A DNA stretch of 23,414 bases, taken from a virus. The notes under the pieces are model-generated. The model was not told where the DNA came from and did not search any database. It saw only the letters and a list, made by a program, of their open reading frames with translations. The translations under genes and the position numbers were made by a program. The DNA lies in UHGV virus genome UHGV-0114356; one strand, 5' to 3'. Of the stretch, positions 1 through 10,700 are shown piece after piece; positions within the stretch are counted from its first letter, which is position 1, and every line of letters begins with the position of its first letter.

Positions 1-101
1 GCGTCACGCCGAGCGCTTTCACTTCCTGCTCTACCCAATCCATATACGGAGCCGGTTGCGGTATTTCCGTTAATAGAGATAGTTCCGGTGCTATAAATCA
101 T
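1..101 (-). CDS. hypothetical protein, 5' part only (starts at 101, runs off the window start)
   Basis: ATG at 99-101 on the minus strand with AGGAG 5 nt upstream (rc of 102-115 = atttaggagttgtt). Open frame continues to position 1: MIYSTGTISINGNTATGSVYGLGRAGSESARRD... Gly/Thr/Ser-rich; too short to assign a family. Confidence 0.35.
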   Translation of the reverse strand, partial: MIYSTGTISINGNTATGSVYGLGRAGSESARRD

Positions 102-606: not shown

Positions 607-837
607 ATGAAACTCGCTCTAATTATGCTGCCATTATGTCTGTCCCTCACTGCATGTGGTAGTGGCCTGAATACCGGTAAACCGAATTCCGGCGTTATCC
701 CAAAACCCTTGGATTGGGATAACGGTTCTTTAATTTATGATACCGAAAAGCTTCCAATGACTGGGCAATGGTGCCATGAGATTGATCATGAATACCGACG
801 AATTGGTTCACCTTCAAACTGTGTAGCTAACTACTAA
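607..837 (+). CDS. small secreted lipoprotein (76 aa); candidate superinfection-exclusion lipoprotein
   Basis: ATG 607 preceded by AAGGAG (596-601, 5-nt spacer). N-terminus MKLALIMLPLCLSLTAC is a signal peptide with a lipobox (L-T-A-C); mature part begins CGSG and has two further Cys. AT-rich, opposite orientation to the tail operon, followed by a terminator. Confidence 0.6.
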   Translation: MKLALIMLPLCLSLTACGSGLNTGKPNSGVIPKPLDWDNGSLIYDTEKLPMTGQWCHEIDHEYRRIGSPSNCVANY

Positions 838-870
838 AAGAAACCCCCCGCGCTAAGCGGGGTTGTTTTT
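838..870. terminator. bidirectional intrinsic terminator between convergent lipoprotein gene and J
   Basis: GC stem ccccgc (846-851) / gcgggg (857-862) with loop gctaa, flanked by an A-rich run on the 5' side and ttgttttt on the 3' side; T-tracts on both strands. Confidence 0.6.
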
Positions 871-1480
871 ATCCTGAGAATGAACCAGAACCGCGCGTCA
901 CAATGACGGTCGGTGAATTTATATAAGCCCCCATACTATTTTGAGCGGATACCTTAATTTTAACTGTAACGGCACGACTGGTTACAGGTGATGAGTGCAT
1001 TACAAGACGCTCGTTGCCGTCCATAGGAAGGTTTTTTTCTGAACCTTCAATGTTTATCGTGCAGCCACCAAAACCTTTAACGTTTGCCATAACGCAGATA
1101 TGTCTTCTATGTGCTGCACTTGATGTGTCATTGTATGTAATTGTTTTTTCGAGTACGCCATCATTTAACCTGCTAACGTCAGATCCTGTGTACATATTCG
1201 CAACGTCTCCCACAAAACTGGTAGCTTCCACAGTACCCGTGAATTTACCGCTTGTTGCTTGTATCTCACCAGTAAATCTACCACCACTAGCGTATACTAT
1301 ACCTCTCACAGTTACATTATTGAATTCAGCATCCCCAGCTTTATTTAACTTCCAACCAGCAGAACCAGCTGCATAGTTGTTGGACTGGATATAGTTGCCG
1401 ATTTTGGCGTTCTCAATGGTGCCGTCCTGGATGAAGCTGGCCCGGATGAATGTCTGCCCGTTCTGGATCACGAACGGCAA
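869..1480 (-). CDS. J: host specificity protein J (tail tip/central fibre), C-terminal fragment 3 of 3, out of frame with fragment 2
   Basis: Translation PFVIQNGQTFIRASFIQDG... is collinear with the lambda gpJ C-terminal region (lambda ...MFVAQGNQIFMNDVFLK...). The listed start is an in-frame TTG; this frame is open upstream to a stop at 1640-1642. Confidence 0.7.
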   Translation of the reverse strand: MPFVIQNGQTFIRASFIQDGTIENAKIGNYIQSNNYAAGSAGWKLNKAGDAEFNNVTVRGIVYASGGRFTGEIQATSGKFTGTVEATSFVGDVANMYTGSDVSRLNDGVLEKTITYNDTSSAAHRRHICVMANVKGFGGCTINIEGSEKNLPMDGNERLVMHSSPVTSRAVTVKIKVSAQNSMGAYINSPTVIVTRGSGSFSG

Positions 1481-1482
1481 AG

Positions 1483-3198
1483 CTACGCTATTTCCGGCTG
1501 CCGTGGTGACGGCAGTGTTACAGTCCCGCCGACCATAGTAGTCACGGCGAAACGGTCTGCCAGGAAGATTACCTGTGACTGCATGCCGGAGGGTGTATTT
1601 TGAACCCCTATACCCATCCCGGCAGCGTAATACTGCCCGTTACTGGACACCCCCACCTTGATGTTATACATCGCGCTGAGGTTACCGTTTACGTTCGCAA
1701 TGGCCTGAGCGTTGGTGGTGATGGCTGAGGTATGCCCGTTCACCGTCGCCGTGATGCTGTTTACCTGCGTGGCCATAGCCTGCTGGTAATCGGAGAACGT
1801 CTGATTCAGGCTGTTTATGGATGCCTTGTTGCCGTTGACATCCGTCTGCAGGCTCAGCAGAGAGCGCGCCGTTGCCTCCTTCTCGTTAACGATTACCTCA
1901 TCAATACGATCCAGCTGCGCACTGTTACCGGCGACCGTCGCGGAAAGCCTTTTGCGTGTGGCCACCTGCGCCAGCCCGTTCTGGATTATCGCAATTGCAG
2001 AGTTCTTCACCCCGCCCGTCATGCCGTCCATCGACACAGAAATCTCGTCGATCTTCACTTCGGCCTGAGCCAGCCAGTCAGCGTTCTCCAGGATGTCTTT
2101 CGCCTGCTGCTCGAGTTCGTCGGCATGGTTTTTAATTTCGTCAGCCATGCCAGCAATTTTTTCATTGCTGTCCACCGCGTTCTCGATCAGATCTTTGAAC
2201 GTATCGGAGCCTTTCATGTCCTCCAGGATTGCATCGGTGATATCGGAAACATCGATGCTGGCCTGCCCGCGCACCCAGTCTGTCCAGTCGCTCTGATTCC
2301 CGATGCGGTCAACCAGCCGTGCCCGGTACCAGAATTCCTGCCCTGCCTTCAGCCCCATCTGCTGATAGAGTTTCTGAGGATACGGCACCGACGCCAAAAG
2401 CATTGGATTTGCCCCATCGACTGAAGCGCTGTATTGCAGTTCCGTGCTCAGGGTGTCGGCGGTATCTGCGGGGAAACCCCATGTAATGTTGATCCCTAAT
2501 ACAACATCCTCTGTTGCTGTTAGTCCGACAGGTTTGGGCACTTCACCGGTGCGGCCGGTAAGATGGGTCAACGCAGACGTGGCCCAAAGGCTGGACGCTC
2601 CCCCAGAGTTAATCGCACGGACGCGCACAAGGTAATCGCCCTCGAAAATGCCAGGCACTTCGATATTTCGTAACCCGGTTTCAGGCACGTTTACCCATTC
2701 GTTATTTCCGCGCTTCCACTGTGCCCGGTACGCTATTACGTCCGACTGCAGTTTGCCGTCTTTATCAATTGGCGCATCCCACGAGGCGGTTAGCGTGGCC
2801 ACGCGTTGCCCCTGGCGAACCGCATCATAGCTCGATACCACGATGTTGGTCGGCTGGTTAACTAGCCCGGTCGGAATCAGGCTTATCGGAGGAGTATCGA
2901 GGCGAGCATTGTTATCAACGGCGTCGTATTTCGACGCGTTATACTCCGCACCGGTAATGGTGAAGGTGTTTTCCTCATCATCAAATTTTAGGTTCGTTAC
3001 CCGGAAATACTGCAGGCGCAGCTGACCAGCATCAATGACGAATACGGCATTAGGTAATGGCGCCGCCGTGAACGGCGTGGACAGGATCAGCTGCGTGCCA
3101 TTTACGGCCTGTATCATCCGGCTTTCAACGGTACCGCCCTGGGTGCGAATCATCAGCGTATCGCCCGCCACCGCACTGGTGCCCCGGTCAATGGTCAC
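1483..3198 (-). CDS. J: host specificity protein J, central fragment 2 of 3 (FNIII-like region)
   Basis: Collinear with lambda gpJ from about TLTLDREITLP onward (here AVTIDRGTSAVAG...) to ...SQFLVAANRIAF (here ...SQVIFLADRFAV). Listed start is a GTG; frame is open upstream to 3255. Confidence 0.7.
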   Translation of the reverse strand: MTIDRGTSAVAGDTLMIRTQGGTVESRMIQAVNGTQLILSTPFTAAPLPNAVFVIDAGQLRLQYFRVTNLKFDDEENTFTITGAEYNASKYDAVDNNARLDTPPISLIPTGLVNQPTNIVVSSYDAVRQGQRVATLTASWDAPIDKDGKLQSDVIAYRAQWKRGNNEWVNVPETGLRNIEVPGIFEGDYLVRVRAINSGGASSLWATSALTHLTGRTGEVPKPVGLTATEDVVLGINITWGFPADTADTLSTELQYSASVDGANPMLLASVPYPQKLYQQMGLKAGQEFWYRARLVDRIGNQSDWTDWVRGQASIDVSDITDAILEDMKGSDTFKDLIENAVDSNEKIAGMADEIKNHADELEQQAKDILENADWLAQAEVKIDEISVSMDGMTGGVKNSAIAIIQNGLAQVATRKRLSATVAGNSAQLDRIDEVIVNEKEATARSLLSLQTDVNGNKASINSLNQTFSDYQQAMATQVNSITATVNGHTSAITTNAQAIANVNGNLSAMYNIKVGVSSNGQYYAAGMGIGVQNTPSGMQSQVIFLADRFAVTTMVGGTVTLPSPRQPEIA

Positions 3199-4718
3199 GG
3201 CCTTAAGACCAGCGTTATACCCGGTGATACGCCGTAAACGCGCCCTGACAGGCGTTCATCTGCAAACGCAAATACGGTGCCCGGCACGAATACAAAGCCA
3301 TCAAGTCCAGTCTGAAGCGTGATAATGCGGTCAAGGGAGTTGGAATACACCGCCCACCCGCCACGCCGCTGCGCCTCGCTCTCACGCGTACAACCGATCG
3401 CAGTGATTTGTGTCTGCTTAAACTTGAACTGCCTTACCAGTTCCGGAAACATCACTGCCGTGGTGCGGTCCTGGTAGTGGTTATCCGGATCGCTGAAGTT
3501 AATCAGCGCGCTGGAGAATCGGTTTTTCTCACTGCCACTCGAGTACACCGGCTTACCCACCACTGATGCGCGAGTGAGGATCTGCAACTTCGTAGTGTCC
3601 GCCGGCATGTCAGAGACAACATTGAACATGTTGTTGCCCCAGAAAGTCATTCCGTTGAAGCCCGCGGCAATATCTTTAATCACCTGCCAGGCATCAGCCT
3701 GGGACTGGATGTAAACGTCAAACATGAAGCGTGGCTCGGTACCGCTTCCGCCTTTCCCGTCGGGTACCTTCTGGTCGCAGCGCTGGGCGATGCGATAGAT
3801 CTCCCACTTATCGAGCATTTCTGGCGTCACGCGGCGCCCAAGGCCGAAGCGCGGCTCAGTCAGAACATCGAACCAAATCCACGCCGGGTTATTCGTCCAG
3901 CCCCATTTAAACGTCCCGTCCCATGTTCCGCTATAAGTCCGCGCTATTGGATCATAGTTCGAAGGGATTCGGATGATGCGCCCCTTCGGCATGCAGGAAA
4001 TCTTAGGGATGTTGTTGAATGACTTTGCGTTAAAGGACACGTACAGCAGCGCTGTGTGTGGATATCGCAGGCGAGCATCGATCACTTCAGTAATCGCTTG
4101 CACCTGCGTTTTGTTCTGCAGCATCTGGCTGGTGCTGTCATCGGTGTCACGCACCACTCGAATTTGCCAGCCAGTGCTGGCTTTGGGAAGATTAATACGG
4201 TGGGTTAGTTCATAGAGCGAGCTGAGCTTCTCTGTGACGGTTTTCGTCATGACTGTCGAGTAAGCGCCACCGTCCACCGCCAGATCAATATGGTACTGAA
4301 CCGTAGTGCCGACAATATCCCCATCGTTTTCCTGCTGCTGTAACCCAGGGATGCCAATACGAACCAGCACCGCGTCAATCTGGGTGTTACTCAGTGCGCG
4401 GGTCCATGGTGTGGCCTTTGTCAGCGATACCCCAACCGTAGTTTCATTCTCGACTGCAGGGAATCCCGGTATTGGTGTCTGGGTCTGTGTGCCAGGCCGG
4501 AAATCCCATGACACATTTTCAAAATTCATCGTTCCGTCGGGGTTTCCCAACGGCGTACCGTCCAGGAATATCCGGGTCGCATCCAGGCCACCAGCAAACT
4601 CCCCCTCCCCGAGCGCCAGCAGCATGCGGCAGCGCGCCATTGACTGAGCCGAATCGGGCTGTTCTACAGGTGTGTGCTGCTTCTGGCTGCCACCCTTTGC
4701 ACCAGTGATCGCTTCCAT
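3195..4718 (-). CDS. J: host specificity protein J, N-terminal fragment 1 of 3
   Basis: N-terminus MEAITGAKGGSQKQHTPVEQ resembles lambda gpJ MGKGSSKGHTPREAK; conserved blocks LQNKTQ, IPSNYDP, YSGTWDGTFK, EPRFGLG, CDQKVPDG. Ends prematurely relative to lambda J (about 1130 aa). Confidence 0.8.
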   Translation of the reverse strand: MEAITGAKGGSQKQHTPVEQPDSAQSMARCRMLLALGEGEFAGGLDATRIFLDGTPLGNPDGTMNFENVSWDFRPGTQTQTPIPGFPAVENETTVGVSLTKATPWTRALSNTQIDAVLVRIGIPGLQQQENDGDIVGTTVQYHIDLAVDGGAYSTVMTKTVTEKLSSLYELTHRINLPKASTGWQIRVVRDTDDSTSQMLQNKTQVQAITEVIDARLRYPHTALLYVSFNAKSFNNIPKISCMPKGRIIRIPSNYDPIARTYSGTWDGTFKWGWTNNPAWIWFDVLTEPRFGLGRRVTPEMLDKWEIYRIAQRCDQKVPDGKGGSGTEPRFMFDVYIQSQADAWQVIKDIAAGFNGMTFWGNNMFNVVSDMPADTTKLQILTRASVVGKPVYSSGSEKNRFSSALINFSDPDNHYQDRTTAVMFPELVRQFKFKQTQITAIGCTRESEAQRRGGWAVYSNSLDRIITLQTGLDGFVFVPGTVFAFADERLSGRVYGVSPGITLVLRP

Positions 4719-4727
4719 ATTACATCC

Positions 4728-4753
4728 ATAAAAAAAGCACCCAATTGGGTGCT
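4728..4753 (-). terminator. intrinsic terminator/attenuator between I and J
   Basis: Minus-strand hairpin agcaccc-aatt-gggtgct (4736-4753) followed by a 7-T tract (plus-strand A run 4730-4736), just upstream of the J start. Confidence 0.5.
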
Positions 4754-4772
4754 TGATATTCAGAAAGGAGTT

Positions 4773-5366
4773 TTAGATGTCTTCTGCGACTATGCCGGCA
4801 CTGATGATGGCGCCGCCAATCTCGCGCTCACCATAAAGAAGCGCGACCGGGTTACCCATCGCAAGGGTATTCACCGATCCACCGAAGGCATATGATGGTT
4901 TATTGTCAGGATCGTCTCGCCCCTGTAGTCCTTTGGGCTGGGGAGAAAGCATCTGGTAAATTCCTCCAGCCATCATTCCGATACCAGCGGAGACCATTCC
5001 CGCGCCAATGACACCTGCTGAACCGAACGTCATGCCCGTGACGACGATGCCCGCCACAACCATGACAGCACCCAATATCGTCTGGAACAAACCAGCTTTT
5101 TTTGCCCCTTCCATCACTGGTGCTATGCGAATATCGGTGCTTCCGGCCAGGTTCTTAAAATCATCCGCGCCAATGTTGCGCCTGCCGCGAAACACCGCGA
5201 ACGTCATGCCATTCTTTTTGGCGTTCAGAAGATAGCTTTCCAGCCCGTCCAGGTTGATGCAAAGCGCCTTTACCGCCTCAGCTGATGTCTGCACCGCCAG
5301 CCTGTGAACACGGCCAAACCGGGCTCCCAGCACACCGTACAATCGAATCGTGGTTAAACGCGCCAT
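4773..5366 (-). CDS. I: tail assembly protein I
   Basis: 197 aa; N-terminal MARLTTIRLYGVLGARFGR resembles lambda gpI (MARICLYGDLQRFGRR); Gly/Ala-rich hydrophobic C-terminal half as in gpI. AGGAG RBS upstream of ATG 5366; overlaps the K 3' end. Confidence 0.8.
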   Translation of the reverse strand: MARLTTIRLYGVLGARFGRVHRLAVQTSAEAVKALCINLDGLESYLLNAKKNGMTFAVFRGRRNIGADDFKNLAGSTDIRIAPVMEGAKKAGLFQTILGAVMVVAGIVVTGMTFGSAGVIGAGMVSAGIGMMAGGIYQMLSPQPKGLQGRDDPDNKPSYAFGGSVNTLAMGNPVALLYGEREIGGAIISAGIVAEDI

Positions 5367-6085
5367 GGCTGAATCTCCTGCGGTAGCTCTTTGTGACGGA
5401 CGCAGATCATCGTCCTGTCTTTGAAATAACCGCGCGCATACGGCGTGATGCAGGATGGCTGCCCGTACAGATGGTGAAGCAGTTCACCTTCCTCGGTAAT
5501 GATCCCCGCGTGGTTCCACTTACTGGATTCAACCTGCATGATGACCATACAGCCTGGCGACGTGTCGCATTCGACAAACCCTTCCCGCTCCCAGTTGTCG
5601 AAATACAGGTTGTCCGGGTACTGGCTTTCCCACCATGGGTAATCGACGCGGAAATCGTTAAGCTTCACGCCTTGGGTGGCATGCCAATCCATTACCAGTC
5701 CCCAGCAGTCATTTGAGCCCAGGATAAACGGACGCCCGATAAGGGGTACCGCCTCCGGCATTATCTCAGCGTATTCGTCGCTATCCGGCGCGTAAATACC
5801 CCAGACCACGCCGGAGTTGTTGCATTGCTGGCGATCCAGATCGGATGGAATCGGCCTTGCTCCATCGCCAGGATGGGAATGGATGACGCGCACAATCGTC
5901 CCGATATCTTCGGCGTTCGCCCAATGCTCGCCATCGATGCGGAAATGCTCTGTTGGATTTTCGTGAGTGTTTGGTACAGGAATATAGCGCTGGCGACGGC
6001 CAGACTGAATAACGAATCCGCAGCTCTCGCGCGGGGATTCATCCAGTGCATGCGCCCGGATAGCTGCCATTATGGTTTTATTCAT
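5354..6085 (-). CDS. K: tail assembly protein K (JAB/MPN plus NlpC/P60-like)
   Basis: 243 aa; JAMM-type motif VIHSHPGDGARPIPSDLD and a Cys/His pair (NDCWGLVMDWHA) typical of lambda gpK-family proteins; position between L and I. Confidence 0.85.
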   Translation of the reverse strand: MNKTIMAAIRAHALDESPRESCGFVIQSGRRQRYIPVPNTHENPTEHFRIDGEHWANAEDIGTIVRVIHSHPGDGARPIPSDLDRQQCNNSGVVWGIYAPDSDEYAEIMPEAVPLIGRPFILGSNDCWGLVMDWHATQGVKLNDFRVDYPWWESQYPDNLYFDNWEREGFVECDTSPGCMVIMQVESSKWNHAGIITEEGELLHHLYGQPSCITPYARGYFKDRTMICVRHKELPQEIQPWRV

Positions 6086-6097
6086 TGGTACGTCCGG

Positions 6098-6868
6098 TTA
6101 TCTGGAAAAAAGCACGGTGGCTGGATAGCCCCCAAAATCAAGGGTCGCGGTATTAGGCTCTGCCAGCCCGGCACCAAACCGCTTACGGCAGTCACTCAGG
6201 CAGCCGCCGCACACATCCAGCGCCGGGTCAGCGACAGGATTACCCTTCGCATCAAAATACGCCGTGCCGTTGTAGGTGCATCCATCGCCGCTCCGGTACT
6301 GCCCGCGTAGCGCCCATTCGCAGAGCGAGGTGATTTGTCTGGTTGGGATAACAAGCCCCTGCAAGTCTGCGGGGCTACTGAGTGACCAGGTAACTACCTC
6401 GTCGTCTTCGGAGGTTTTGGTGTCAAGCCAGAAGGTCTGAAGTGTGAACATTGACGAATCAGCTGTAGGGTTTGCGCCACCAGGGTAATTCACAGCATCG
6501 AGATAGACCGCATAGGTATCGATAATGCTCACCCTGGCGTTAACCATGTCCTTAAATTGGAGGCACAGCGCCGTGATATGACCGTCGAGGTTTGAGACGC
6601 TGAGAGACGGCTCCGCCGCCTGGTCTGTTGAAAGCTCCAGGCCTGCTACCTGAAACGGCCAAAAATCGTAGGTATTGCCACCGAATACGATTGGCTTTGG
6701 TCCGAGCTTTTCTTCATCACCATTGGCAGCGTCGATCTCTTCCGGTGTATGGGGGAAAGGTGCGTAGTGGAAACGGTGAATACCGCCACTGAACTCTGAG
6801 GCGTCAACTTCAACCAGGCGTACTCTGCCACCCGGTGCCAGCATCGCCGCCTGATCGACTAATGCCAT
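6098..6868 (-). CDS. L: minor tail protein L
   Basis: 256 aa; blocks YLDAVNYPGGANP and CLSDCRKRFG correspond to lambda gpL (FLDAVNFVNGNSYADP, CSKCLSGCKFRNN). Start ATG overlaps the M stop (TAATG). Confidence 0.85.
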   Translation of the reverse strand: MALVDQAAMLAPGGRVRLVEVDASEFSGGIHRFHYAPFPHTPEEIDAANGDEEKLGPKPIVFGGNTYDFWPFQVAGLELSTDQAAEPSLSVSNLDGHITALCLQFKDMVNARVSIIDTYAVYLDAVNYPGGANPTADSSMFTLQTFWLDTKTSEDDEVVTWSLSSPADLQGLVIPTRQITSLCEWALRGQYRSGDGCTYNGTAYFDAKGNPVADPALDVCGGCLSDCRKRFGAGLAEPNTATLDFGGYPATVLFSR

Positions 6869-7218
6869 TATGCATACACTCCGTAAGCCCGTTTGATGGT
6901 GAACGTCAATTCAGCAAACTTGCTGCTGATCTGATTTTTCCGTACGGAATCGGCGACTACCCGATAAAGCCCCTTCTCTTCTCCCGGCGGCGTGATGATG
7001 AAGGCCTTCACGGTATGAGCCAGGAGGAAGTCGCGCACTGCGTTTACCTCAGACTCACTGCCAACGTGTTTCATTGGCACCTGGATCGCCGTGGAGTTGA
7101 TGCCGTTCTCGGCCACCTGCTCATAGCCATCACCGAACTGCGCAGCGCGCACCGTTTGACTATATTCAATCGCCCCAGCACCGAGCTGCGAGCGCCAGCT
7201 GTATGTTTCAACTGCCAT
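6868..7218 (-). CDS. M: minor tail protein M
   Basis: Internal ATG at 7216-7218 with GGAG RBS (rc of 7219-7230 = tatggagtaaat) gives MAVETYSWRSQ...; FGDGYEQ matches lambda gpM FGDGYSQ. The longer track ORF (start 7269) runs through the upstream terminator, so it is not used. Confidence 0.75.
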   Translation of the reverse strand: MAVETYSWRSQLGAGAIEYSQTVRAAQFGDGYEQVAENGINSTAIQVPMKHVGSESEVNAVRDFLLAHTVKAFIITPPGEEKGLYRVVADSVRKNQISSKFAELTFTIKRAYGVYA

Positions 7219-7229
7219 ATTTACTCCAT

Positions 7230-7255
7230 AAAAAAAGCCCCGCGTATGCGAGGCT
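7230..7255 (-). terminator. intrinsic terminator after the moron gene, immediately upstream of M
   Basis: Minus-strand hairpin agcctcgca-ta-cgcggggct (7236-7255; one mismatch, one G-U) followed by a 7-T tract (plus-strand A run 7230-7236). Confidence 0.55.
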
Positions 7256-7748: not shown

Positions 7749-10700
7749 CTACCTGCCTTTGCTGAAGTTGTAGATCATGCCACCCGGTTTAAGCTGTTTC
7801 TGAACTACCTGCAGTGCGGCATTCTGCATTTCCTCGGCAAGCGCGCGCCCCATGGCATCACCAGAACTGGAAGTTTGCGTTGTAACCGAACCACCAGCAT
7901 CTACGTTAACAGTGGTATTGATAATCGGGGCCATCCCGCCGCCACCCTGGGCACGTACCCCCAAGCGCCCGGCAGAGTCCCGAGTTAGGGGCATGATTGC
8001 TTCAGCACCAGCCTCTGCGAAGACGCCGCCTTTCGCAAACTTAGATGCGCCCTGGAAGGTGAAATGCTGAGGAGTGTCGTAAACACCGTTCACATATTTA
8101 CTGAGGCCAGGAGAGTCATAGACACCACCTTTAGCATTGAAGGTTACGCCAGCAGCGGCGTTTGCATATGCACCACCAGGCGTGCTGCCACCGCCACTGC
8201 CACCGCTTATCCAGCCCATCGCAGCCTGCACCGCATAGGCAACCATCAGCCTGTTTGTCACCTCAACAATCATCTTCAGCATCGATTCGCCGAATTCTTT
8301 TATTGAGGCTTTTCCCGTCGTCATTAAGCTGGTTAGCATGTCAGATAGACCTGTCAGCGTCGAACTAGCCACGTTCTTCACTGCGTCGTAGGTGTTGGTA
8401 GCGGCATCCAGATATTCATTCCATCCAGCAACAGCCCCAGACTTCCAGTCGCCGCGCAGCTTATCCTCTTCAGAGTAATAATTTCTGAGGGCTGCCAGTT
8501 CTTTCTCATAGCCAGCATCATCAAGCTTACCACCACCGTTGAGCCAGCCTTGGCGGAGCTGAGCCTCTTCCATCATGCGCTGGCTCTGACGGCTGCTTAG
8601 GCCTGCGCTGCCTCGCAACGCTTCTGTCTTTTCCGACATCTGCGTGACGTATTTATTCGCCTGCTGCGCCAGGCCATTAATCTTCTGCTGCGCCTCTACT
8701 TCCTTGTTCTTCTGATCCACCACCTTGGCGGCGTTCAGAATGGCCTCACGGCTCGACAGTAGAGATTTCTCCTGGGCGGTCAGCGCTCGTGTTTTGGCAG
8801 CCTCATCCAATTCAGCAAAGCGAGATTGCTGTTTGCTGAATTCGGTATATCTGACCTGCGTCTCCCCAGTCTTGCGCAACGTTTCGAGTGTTTCAGTTAA
8901 CGTTCTGGCCTGGGCACGGTAGTTCTCAAGAGTGCGATCGCCAGCATCCAGCGTGGCTTTTGCCTCTTTGGTCTTTTTGGCTGAGTCTTGTGCAAGCTTC
9001 GAGACTGCGTCTCTTGATTCTCGACTTGTTCCGCCATCACCTTTTACGTTAGACCCTCGCGCTTCAGCCTCATAGTTTGCCTGTGCGTTAGGCGCAGTGA
9101 CGCGCTTCCAAAGCTCGTTATAGCGTTTTTTGTTCGCCTCAATCTCTTTGTCCGCTTCCGCTCCAGCCTTTTTCATTGCCTCAACGTCCATGCCGAGGAA
9201 ATTAGCCAGCGCACCGCCACCCGGGATTTTGTCTGCCCAGCCAGCGATGGTGCTGGTGAACTTGGCGTCCAGAGAGGTGATATTGAGGAACAAGTCTTTG
9301 ATCGAGGACTTAACCAGTTCGAAGATATCGATGATCTGGTTTCCCCAGGCGCGCACGGTAACCCCGATTTGACCGAAAATGTCGGAGGAGAAAGCTTTAA
9401 TCCCGTTCCACGCCTTCCCGATATTATCGGTGGCCTCTACAATTTTATTACTGCGATCCTCCATGGTGTCGGCAAAAAGCGTTATAGCTTCGTTTGCCGC
9501 TGCTGTTTTCCCCTTCGTTTTCTCCAGGGTAATGAGGTGCTTCATCATGGCTTCATCAACAAAGCCATATTGCTGGTTCAAGCTCGCCAGGGCTTTAATA
9601 GGATCGTTTGCCAGTCGTGAAAAATCCGCCAGCGCAGCCTTCGTATCCAGCCCTGCATCACCCATAGCCAGAATGGATTTGGCAATTTTGGTCATCTGGT
9701 CGGCGGTATACTTCCCGGTGTCGTTTAGTTGGACCAGGGTATCAACAGACTCAGCCAAAGAAGCACCAGCGTTATCAGCAACATCCTTTGCCGCGTCGTT
9801 CAGTTGCTGCATGGAGGAAAAGCCAGCCCCGCCCATCAAAATGAGCGATCTGGCAACATTGTCGAACTGCTGGGATGAACTGTAGGCAGCCCCAGCCAGA
9901 AGAGCCAGCAAACCCACCGAGCCAGCAATCGCAAGGTTAAAGGTATTTAACAGGCCACCCGCCCGCCCCAGCTTCTCCGCTGCCTCACTGGTGTTGTTAA
10001 GTCCTTCAGCAGCGTCACTTATGCCTGCTGCCGACTCGGATGTTTCTCTGCTCTCTTCGTTAAACCCAAACAATGCGTCCCGCAAAGCCTGGAGCATTGG
10101 GCCTAATCCACCAAAAGAATCCTTAATTTGCCCGCCTTGCTGGAGCAAGATCAGGAAAGGGGATTGGCCTCCAGCCAACTGTGTCGCGATATCGGTGAAC
10201 TGCGCCGGCAGAGTGCGCAGCGCGGCGCTGTACTGGCCAACGGAAATTCCAGCACGCCGGGCAGCAGCTTCCTGCCGGGATAGCGCCTCTGGCAGCACGT
10301 CAGCCACGCCAGAGAGCCGTTCACGCGTCTGGTTGAGGATGGTGTTGAAATGTTCGAACTGGGTGCCGTTAATGCGCCCCGCTTCGAAGTGTGCCACCAG
10401 CTGCGCATGCTGCTCGTCCAGCGAGTTGAATGCGCGGATCGTCGGGTCGATGGAGCCGAGAAGGTTTTTCAGCGCTGCCGACTGTTTCTCAGCAGCCTGG
10501 GTGGCTGCCAGTTCAGCCTGGGCCCGCATTGATGCCTCAGCGGTTTCACCGAGTTTTTGCCGGGTGTTATCCAGTATTGTCTGGTAACTCTTAAACTCCT
10601 CAGTATTGAGAAATCCCCCCGCATGGAATCTCTGCAAAGCAACCTGCTGGTCCTCGAGCTTTTCCAGCGCAATCAGCGTGGGGTTGATGTTCTCCAACAA

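Follow-up and report, generated by a model that had tools for sequence, protein, structure and literature searches.

An apparent out-of-register junction of two J alleles at a frame break in the lambda gpJ-like gene of a phage contig, possibly made in assembly

The window analysed here is the whole stretch of 23,414 nt of UHGV virus genome UHGV-0114356 and corresponds to ENA ERZ1755931 NODE_975_length_23414_cov_4.516204, a SPAdes-style metagenome contig with a coverage of 4.5. Its genes follow a lambda-like order (tape measure, M, L, K, I, J). According to the ORF list and Pfam, positions 869..4718 of the minus strand hold a lambda gpJ-like tail tip or central fibre gene ("host specificity protein J", TipJ family). 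This gene is present as three ORF pieces in the list (3195..4718, 1483..3198, and 869..1639), which together are collinear with J of E. coli ABWA45, an intact protein of 1304 aa. Its place after the tail assembly genes L, K, and I fits the TipJ family, but the single ORF of ~1050-1300 codons that goes with it was not found in the window; 12 isolate relatives carry single J ORFs of 1066-1362 aa. The late operon seems intact apart from J. Downstream of J, a disruption of the DUF6453 gene was considered and rejected, as the region matches ABWA45 save for one SNP.

Fragment 1 (3195..4718) matches PF24801 with 154.7 bits and PF13550 with 47.1 bits, both above the curated cut-offs of Pfam. PF09327 (Phage_Tail_Tip / DUF1983) is split between the other two pieces, which lie in different frames: fragment 2 matches profile positions 1-71 and fragment 3 matches 62-138. 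Profile positions 62-71 are matched twice, once per fragment, and the domain is not continuous in the window's J. Phmmer matches of the break region include lambda gpJ 8iyk_J (E = 2.3e-8, residues 860-998), the J-like gp24 (23gd_D), and an F2-pyocin fibre. The domains of its pieces and the homology to gpJ structures assign the predicted product to the TipJ / lambda gpJ family; lambda gpJ (PDB 8iyk, 8xcj and others) and E. coli lambdoid TipJ have the same domain set, PF24801 (FNIII-A_GpJ), PF13550 (Phage-tail_3), and PF09327. Unlike these relatives, the window's J has two breaks, one from a 4-nt deletion and one from a 35-nt insertion. Its C-terminal module is of the "...SGSFSG" type that is common among E. 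coli and Enterobacter prophages and is not the LamB-binding domain of lambda.

The first break, also listed in the preliminary description, exists and is a loss of one copy of a tandem GGCG GGCG (4-nt deletion, GGCGGGCG) at ~3234 (3230..3238, minus strand), in a stretch that is otherwise 100% identical to ABWA45. It is common to the only other assembly of the phage that was found, SAMEA4431990 scaffold_811 (L004), hereafter the sister contig. Both GGCG copies are kept in all 11 complete E. coli genomes that have the segment, and the break 1 pattern gave no match in IMG/VR or the JGI metagenomes. For the 507-aa product of break 1, the cluster table names JGI/IMG among its sources, with a longest contig of 24,849 nt, and the contig search gave two ENA contigs only (23,414 and 24,819 nt). 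A slippage deletion in a 4-nt tandem repeat, seen in two assemblies, is comparable to the decay of defective (cryptic) prophages of Enterobacteriaceae; such decay is established for break 1 only, whereas break 2 is seen in one contig. J is still inactivated by break 1 even if break 2 is unreal, and the conclusion that the phage makes no intact J is founded on break 1 and not on break 2.

All sequence-level statements of the preliminary description on break 2 were borne out. Fragment 2 (ORF 1483..3198, minus strand) ends in ...FLADRFAVTTMVGGTVTLPSPRQPEIA, and its stop TAG (1483..1485, minus strand, read as 1485-1483) follows the frameshifted tail PSPRQPEIA. The other frame is open from 1639 (last stop 1642-1640) and reads ...NTAVTTAAGNSVALPFVIQNGQTFIRAS... 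to 869. The lambda J alignment runs on across the break (lambda gpJ residues ~860-998). Each side of the break holds a part of PF09327, which places the break inside J and not at a gene boundary. From the sequence as written, J cannot be made as one polypeptide. Two 12-aa units are indeed offset by 35 nt, with unit A (DNA GCCGTGACT...ACACTG) starting at 1548 and unit B (DNA GCCGTCACC...GCTTTG) at 1513. The units share 7 of 12 residues but only 20 of 36 nt. They are homologous, as had been proposed: their likeness is not due to chance, since both pieces match the same PF09327 positions and each unit occurs singly, at the same place, in intact homologues.

The frame is broken by 35 extra nt (GCCGTGACTACTATGGTCGGCGGGACTGTAACACT; 1514..1548, minus strand), which correspond to the 36-nt coding sequence of the A-type unit AVTTMVGGTVTL without its last nucleotide. 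These 35 nt are absent from the intact J of ABWA45 and ARL09/232, and they are present in register in the A-type J of CX21, H6, and ECONIH4, where they continue with TGCCGTTCGTT.... The A-type stretch of the window is identical to the J of E. coli ECONIH4 over 1509..1692 (minus strand). It contains a 68-nt sub-block common to the sister contig (1625-1692, minus strand) and a 111-nt patch that differs from it (1514-1624, minus strand). This patch is identical to the J of CX21 at 110 of 111 positions, whereas the flank at 1625-2053 is merely 89% identical to CX21. A-type matches end at 1509 and B-type matches start at 1513, and the two overlap in the 5-nt microhomology GCCGT (1509..1513, minus strand). 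With the B-type unit AVTTAAGNSVAL (1478..1513, minus strand), the B-type C-terminal module begins in register and extends to 869; the unit is 100% identical to ABWA45 and the sister contig. In the in-frame B-type version, the junction site reads ...CTGGCTGACCGCTTCGCCGTCACC....

Homologues with the ADRF...PF motif carry exactly one 12-aa unit in 114 of 114 cases, and 24 residues were found in none of them. AVTTAAGNSVAL is the commonest unit (35/114). The two units represent alternative alleles and differ in the C-terminal module linked to them: a short module normally follows the A-type unit and a long one the B-type unit. Both types can reside in one genome: CX15/CX21 have an A-type J (L003) as well as one of B length (L009). 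Mosaicism on a scale of 100-800 nt is seen among the J genes in this comparison. On alignment with these intact genes, break 2 shows itself as an out-of-register junction of two naturally occurring gpJ-like alleles, inside PF09327. The contig follows the A-type allele down to ...ACACTGCCGT and then the B-type allele from the start of its own unit (GCCGTCACC..., AVTTAAGNSVAL, long C-terminal module). Because the alleles share GCCGT alone at the join, the contig has two diverged versions of 35 nt of one domain segment, and its reading frame is shifted.

These comparisons do not agree with the preliminary description of the site as a 12-aa tandem repeat with a 1-nt deletion near 1505-1520. With A-type identity ending at 1509 and B-type identity starting at 1513, the 35-nt offset follows from the join at GCCGT and a deletion is not needed; all 35 nt are missing from intact E. 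coli J. An alignment with intact homologues had been proposed as a check for the 12-aa duplication, and it gave a single unit in every one of the 114. Tandem Repeats Finder gave no DNA tandem repeat in 1300-1800. If a 36-nt segment (12 aa) had been duplicated in tandem in situ, and the copies had then diverged and 1 nt had been deleted, the units would be adjacent, homologous, and 35 = 36 - 1 nt apart, as they are. However, the copies agree at only 20 of 36 nt between flanks with 99-100% identity to known alleles, a different existing allele is identical or near-identical to each copy, and the allele switch falls exactly on the copy boundary. With no duplication in any of the 114 homologues, this model is very improbable.

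A functional break, either a programmed -1 ribosomal frameshift that yields full-length J with a 12-aa insertion or a C-terminal receptor-binding module made by termination-reinitiation, has even less in its favour and is judged the most remote of the explanations. A -1 shift anywhere in 1486-1639 restores the frame, and the stop TAG at 1485-1483 and a TTG at 1480-1478 are just 2 nt apart. Against this, the overlap (1483-1641) lacks an X_XXY_YYZ heptamer in every frame, and gene callers called no fragment 3 gene in the window or in the sister contig. The split interrupts a Pfam domain midway, in a J that break 1 has already disrupted upstream. Every isolate J retrieved from the phage family is a single ORF, and the two-frame arrangement is unconserved, with 114 of 114 motif homologues reading through in one frame.

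The sister contig bears directly on the origin of the junction. It has no mismatch to the window over ~10.6 kb and carries the same private 4-nt deletion; the two differ only at the junction and at the contig end. At the 11 SNP positions in 1570-1624, it has the B-type base in all 11. Its single N-run consists of 14 N where ABWA45 has 10 nt and ends exactly at G1513. With this run filled by the bases of ABWA45, the sister contig would be in frame at the site. A look-up by capsid protein for the rest of the sister contig gave isolate and Logan contigs only.

The junction itself was searched for in several collections. A junction 24-mer had no match in GTDB representative genomes, IMG/VR, or JGI metagenomes, and among the matches listed from 5,426 complete E. 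coli genomes, none spans the junction in one piece and no A-type match extends past 1509. A scan of 153 billion gene positions placed the 571-aa product with the frameshifted tail on the window's contig only; the sole other member of its 90% cluster is an unrelated partial protein. The tail PSPRQPEIA was seen in no homologue and in no other record. A second search for homologues, run with the frameshifted C-terminus, yielded only proteins of 247 aa or less, none with PSPRQPEIA and none from this phage; this search is neutral on read support for the junction. Frameshifted J fragments at the same boundary are known from other short-read and Logan assemblies. Break 2, known from one assembled contig alone, may be an assembly chimera or else an ordinary scar in a gene that was dead before.

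The reading we favour, at a probability of roughly 50%, is that the junction at 1509-1513 was made in sequencing or assembly and never in a phage. In such a case, the sample would have contained an in-frame B-type phage, as in the sister contig, together with reads from a second, A-type J allele. The 68-nt block at 1625-1692, identical in both alleles, would fork the de Bruijn graph, and at ~4.5x coverage, a hole of ~10 nt may have arisen in the B branch, corresponding to the N-run of the sister contig. The assembler would then have retained the dead-end A-type branch and connected it to the following contig via a short terminal overlap. K-mer assemblers may output paths without read support, notably at low k-mer coverage (PMC8172020). 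An assembly or library chimera is favoured by the SPAdes-style source contig with its coverage of 4.5, and by the sister contig, which disagrees at the junction, with B-type SNPs before the site and an N-run at the junction base. It is also in line with the lack of an independent sighting in the collections searched, with two alleles that are both common and can share one genome, and with the similar J frame breaks at the same boundary in other short-read or Logan assemblies.

The window resembles low-coverage strain-mixture chimeras, as outlined in PMC8172020 and bioRxiv 10.1101/155358, in its 4.5x coverage, a shared block longer than k, the Ns of its sister, and a 55-nt chimeric end. Typical graph chimeras, however, switch in register within shared k-mers, whereas the join in the window is out of register and has 5 shared bases. 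A de Bruijn graph cannot join paths via 5 bases, and such a join therefore requires a chimeric junction read or a short-overlap, gap-joining step of a scaffolder. The Hamming gap joiner of SPAdes may accept very short overlaps. It also counts against a chimera that an arbitrary A-type dead end would land on GCCGT by a coincidence of a few percent, and that a 5-nt microhomology beside a 68-nt identity block is the mark expected of genuine homology-facilitated illegitimate recombination. In addition, the downstream contig of the sister assembly starts at the first base common to the junction and the B allele, which is also expected if reads carry both left contexts. The presence of ACTGTAACACTGCCGTCACCACGG in a long read or an isolate genome would count against the chimera reading.

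The contig end provides a second junction. Positions 1..55 (plus strand) belong to hcr, a core gene of E. coli (found in 5403 of 5426 genomes and annotated as hcr), and their length of 55 nt matches the final k of metaSPAdes. This end overlaps the phage tail-fibre homology by 9 nt (47-55), and is thus a second microhomology junction private to the contig; no genome among 5426 E. coli has hcr and the tail fibre joined. The sister contig continues into the tail-fibre gene where the window enters hcr. A second private microhomology junction on the same contig, of exactly 55 nt and missing from the sister contig, adds to the case for a chimera. The hcr end as a local deletion found no support, as the related prophage in ABWA45 sits in malX, far from hcr. 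Integration sites vary in the phage family, so a local deletion at hcr may still have occurred.

A tentative but serious alternative is that a real homology-anchored illegitimate recombination (a gene-conversion patch) took place in a prophage with an already broken J. A strand of a co-resident or co-infecting A-type J allele would have annealed to the B-type J of the prophage within the 68-nt block at 1625-1692. At its other end, it would have been joined at GCCGT by microhomology, out of register by 35 nt, so that 111 nt took the place of 76 nt. The frameshift would be neutral and would persist because J was already dead from break 1; the prophage would be a decaying element, possibly truncated at hcr too. 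The anatomy expected of such an event is present, with a 68-nt anchor (1625-1692), GCCGT (1509-1513), and a 111-nt A-type patch between them. Homology-facilitated illegitimate recombination, in which a homologous anchor is combined with a microhomology join, is described for naturally competent bacteria and for E. coli conjugation (PMC3240628). The window likewise has a 68-nt identity block, a 5-nt microhomology, and a net insertion of foreign-allele sequence, but its junction is known from this one contig, and the same anatomy can also be obtained from a graph fork and a short-overlap join in assembly.

In support of a real event, the left boundary is sharp and in register within the 68-nt identity block, and the right boundary has its 5-nt microhomology. 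A-type and B-type J co-reside in single E. coli genomes, the compared J genes are mosaic on the scale given above, and a graph assembler needs a source for the junction k-mers. Break 1 is a classic slippage product present in two assemblies, so purifying selection on the 3' part of J would already have been lost. Against a real event, the junction occurs in a single 4.5x contig and nowhere else that was searched, and the only other assembly has B-type sequence and an N gap at the site. Two private structural junctions set against zero SNPs over ~10.6 kb to the sister contig would be odd for real lineages, and a common sample origin of the two contigs would require a rare event to be polymorphic at high frequency. 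A simple mixture of H6-like and ABWA45-like phages was also rejected, as the window is 99.6% H6-like over 1962-7239 only and 84-88% elsewhere; with the H6 likeness limited to this interval, the phage is a mosaic in any case.

If the chimera reading is true, break 2 is not a biological feature. The case advises caution in general: a frameshift in a low-coverage metagenome contig, where a conserved segment of a mosaic phage gene borders on an exchangeable module, should not be taken for a pseudogene, a repeat, or recoding before confirmation by reads. If the junction is real, it would be a modest natural case of anchor-plus-microhomology recombination between J alleles where their C-terminal modules start to diverge, and knowledge of gpJ and of prophage decay would be unchanged. 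An unlikely further possibility is that a real junction represents an in-progress, failed swap of host-range modules, in which a lambdoid prophage traded the receptor-binding end of J with a co-resident prophage through a short homologous anchor and a 5-nt microhomology, with ancestral forms (like the sister contig) and recombinant forms coexisting in one gut sample. Such a failed swap would offer a natural snapshot of the origin of mosaic J genes, including non-viable intermediates that are normally purged.

The gpJ-like tail-tip gene J (4718 to 869, minus strand) is divided into three ORF pieces, fragments 1 to 3 (3195..4718, 1483..3198, and 869..1639). It belongs to the TipJ/lambda gpJ family on the evidence of its domains, its gene order, and its homologues of solved structure; in this contig, both its ORF and one of its domains are interrupted. 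At the downstream frame break (break 2, 1478-1640), fragment 2 ends in ...FLADRFAVTTMVGGTVTLPSPRQPEIA at a TAG (1485-1483), and the other frame, whose last stop lies at 1642-1640, is open from 1639 and encodes ...AVTTAAGNSVALPFVIQNGQTF... One 12-aa unit begins at 1548 and a second at 1513, 35 nt downstream. The preliminary description was accurate with regard to this stop, the open frame, and the spacing. The region aligns with lambda gpJ residues ~860-998, and Pfam matches confirm that break 2 lies within one domain, PF09327, with positions 1-71 in fragment 2 and 62-138 in fragment 3.

The two units had been interpreted as a tandem repeat interrupted by a 1-nt deletion near 1505-1520, an interpretation that was not upheld. 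They share 7 of 12 residues and 20 of 36 nt, and TRF reported no DNA tandem repeat at break 2. ADRF, exactly 12 residues, and then PF were found in 114 of 120 C-terminal homologues; none of these 114 has 24 residues between the two motifs, and the frameshifted tail of fragment 2 occurs in none of the 120. In the homologues, a short module (...PFVIQNGQAIIRDTVIGDG...GRLTGVF) invariably comes after the A-type unit AVTTMVGGTVTL, and a long module that ends in SGSFSG comes after the B-type unit AVTTAAGNSVAL. Since each homologue has one unit, tied to its own C-terminal module, the units are alternative alleles and do not form a repeat. Exactly 35 nt (1514-1548) are missing from the intact J genes of the E. 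coli isolates ABWA45 and ARL09/232, both of which align across break 2. No slippery heptamer was detected within the overlap between the two frames. An in situ tandem duplication of the 12-aa segment is very improbable, and recoding by frameshifting or a split gene at break 2 marginally more so: these models are contradicted by how the alleles compare, by the division of one domain between two fragments, and by the absence of both conservation and a slippery site.

Break 2 can be identified with high confidence as the point, inside a domain, where an A-type J allele is joined out of register to a B-type allele. Positions 1692-1509 are identical to the A-type J of isolate ECONIH4, and 1514-1624 match J of isolate CX21 at 110 of 111 positions, the adjoining 1625-2053 being merely 89% identical to CX21. 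From 1513 downward, identity to ABWA45 is 100% over 1400-1513 and 98.5% for the whole module to 869. The A-type matches extend to 1509 and those of the B type begin at 1513, so the two overlap by GCCGT. This motif stands at the unit end in the A allele (CTG CCG TTC) and at the unit start in the B allele (TTC GCC GTC), which accounts for the 35-nt offset and makes a 1-nt deletion unnecessary.

Over its whole length (869-4718, minus strand), J shows fine-scale mosaicism among alleles known in isolates: ~100% E. coli H6 J at 4718-2054, ABWA45-like at 2053-1700, A-type (ECONIH4) at 1692-1509, and an ABWA45-like B module at 1513-869. It does not contain a 96-nt segment near 2054-2081 that is present in ABWA45 and CX21. 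Comparison with the entire ABWA45 J yielded four indels on the minus strand, namely a 4-nt deletion at ~3234 (the upstream frame break, break 1), a 6-nt and a 90-nt gap that both keep the frame and lie near 2054-2081 in a diverged mosaic segment, and the 35-nt insertion at 1514-1548. Break 1 (~3230-3238) is a plain slippage product, in which tandem GGCGGGCG has become GGCG, with one GGCG lost and surroundings 100% identical to ABWA45. It occurs in both metagenome contigs, the window and its sister contig L004, and in 0 of 11 complete E. coli genomes bearing the segment. Of the two lesions that would inactivate J, break 1 has the stronger support.

An exact-protein match identified the window as ENA ERZ1755931 NODE_975_length_23414_cov_4.516204, a SPAdes-style metagenome contig with a k-mer coverage of ~4.5. 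L004 (SAMEA4431990 scaffold_811, 24,819 nt) encodes the identical truncated 507-aa fragment 1, shares the 4-nt deletion, and shows 0 mismatches across ~10.6 kb; by sizes and gene positions, the far ends of the two contigs coincide to within 1 nt. The contigs differ at two sites, break 2 and the contig end. L004 carries the B-type base at 11 of 11 SNP positions in 1570-1624. At the site of the 35-nt insertion, downstream of these SNPs, it has 14 N (9161-9174, the sole N-run within the 12-kb stretch retrieved) where ABWA45 has TGACCGCTTC, and restarts exactly at G1513. At the contig end, L004 runs on into a tail-fibre gene, whereas the window stops in 55 nt (1-55) that are 100% identical to hcr, an E. 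coli core gene found in 5403 of 5426 complete genomes. The hcr and phage tail-fibre homologies overlap by 9 nt at 47-55 (CGGAGCCGG), and no complete E. coli genome joins the two. This join either arose as a chimeric edge in the assembly graph or marks the endpoint of a real deletion.

We put the probability that the break 2 junction is an assembly artefact, a metagenome chimera, at about one half. In favor of an artefact are the coverage of 4.5x, the zero SNPs yet two structural differences relative to L004, and the failure of that second assembly, which follows the B branch, to close exactly this spot. Another microhomology join private to the window, the one at its hcr end, points the same way; its 55 nt of hcr match the final k of metaSPAdes. 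Moreover, A and B alleles occur together in single genomes, such as isolates CX15 and CX21, and k-mer assemblers can produce read-incoherent paths when k-mer coverage is low (PMC8172020). The junction has been sighted nowhere else: its 24-mer has 0 matches in GTDB representative genomes, IMG/VR, and JGI metagenomes, no match spans it among those listed from complete E. coli genomes, and the 571-aa product was found on the window contig only. Further frameshifted J fragments at this boundary come from short-read and Logan assemblies; P0140 and P0179 (Logan) and P0170 (ENA) lose the frame after ...QVIF or after the 12-aa unit, which suggests that assembly or sequencing readily breaks at the module boundary, or that real frameshifts tend to occur there.

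Real recombination within J is somewhat less probable than an artefact. For a graph assembler to join through 5 bases, either a read must carry the junction or the gap joiner must be permissive, as the short-overlap joiner of SPAdes may be. The L004 downstream contig starts at the first base shared by both left-hand contexts. An anchor combined with microhomology is the mark characteristically left by homology-facilitated illegitimate recombination, a process documented in E. coli according to PMC3240628. The A/B fork at 1625 is preceded by a 68-nt block that the window shares without differences with L004 and with A-type alleles; this block could just as well be a recombination anchor as a repeat longer than k in a de Bruijn graph. 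In addition, a further lesion would be neutral in a J that break 1 had already inactivated.

A gene for a 76-aa predicted lipoprotein (607..837, plus strand, lipobox LTAC) is convergent with J, and a GC-rich hairpin and T-run (~841-870) lie between their stop codons. ABWA45 has the identical protein, annotated as hypothetical, and in A-type relatives a gene for the Cor exclusion lipoprotein follows J at a distance of a few genes. In four relatives (L001, L002, L027, and L030), J is followed by tail-fibre genes and then opposite-strand tail-fibre fragments and a 'recombinase family protein'. This is the layout of an invertible tail-fibre segment, and it would account for the breaks of both metagenome contigs here. 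Elsewhere, two relatives (L022 and L023) encode a 723-aa Mu-F-like minor head protein with intein/HINT domain matches and two opposite-strand gene calls inside the gene, one of them DUF559; in closer relatives of the window, this protein has 367 aa.

It is unlikely that a failed host-range module swap, polymorphic within one gut sample, has been caught in the act. Break 2 is a well-known kind of phenomenon in either case: a chimera of metagenome assembly, or an ordinary scar left by recombination in a gene of a defective prophage.
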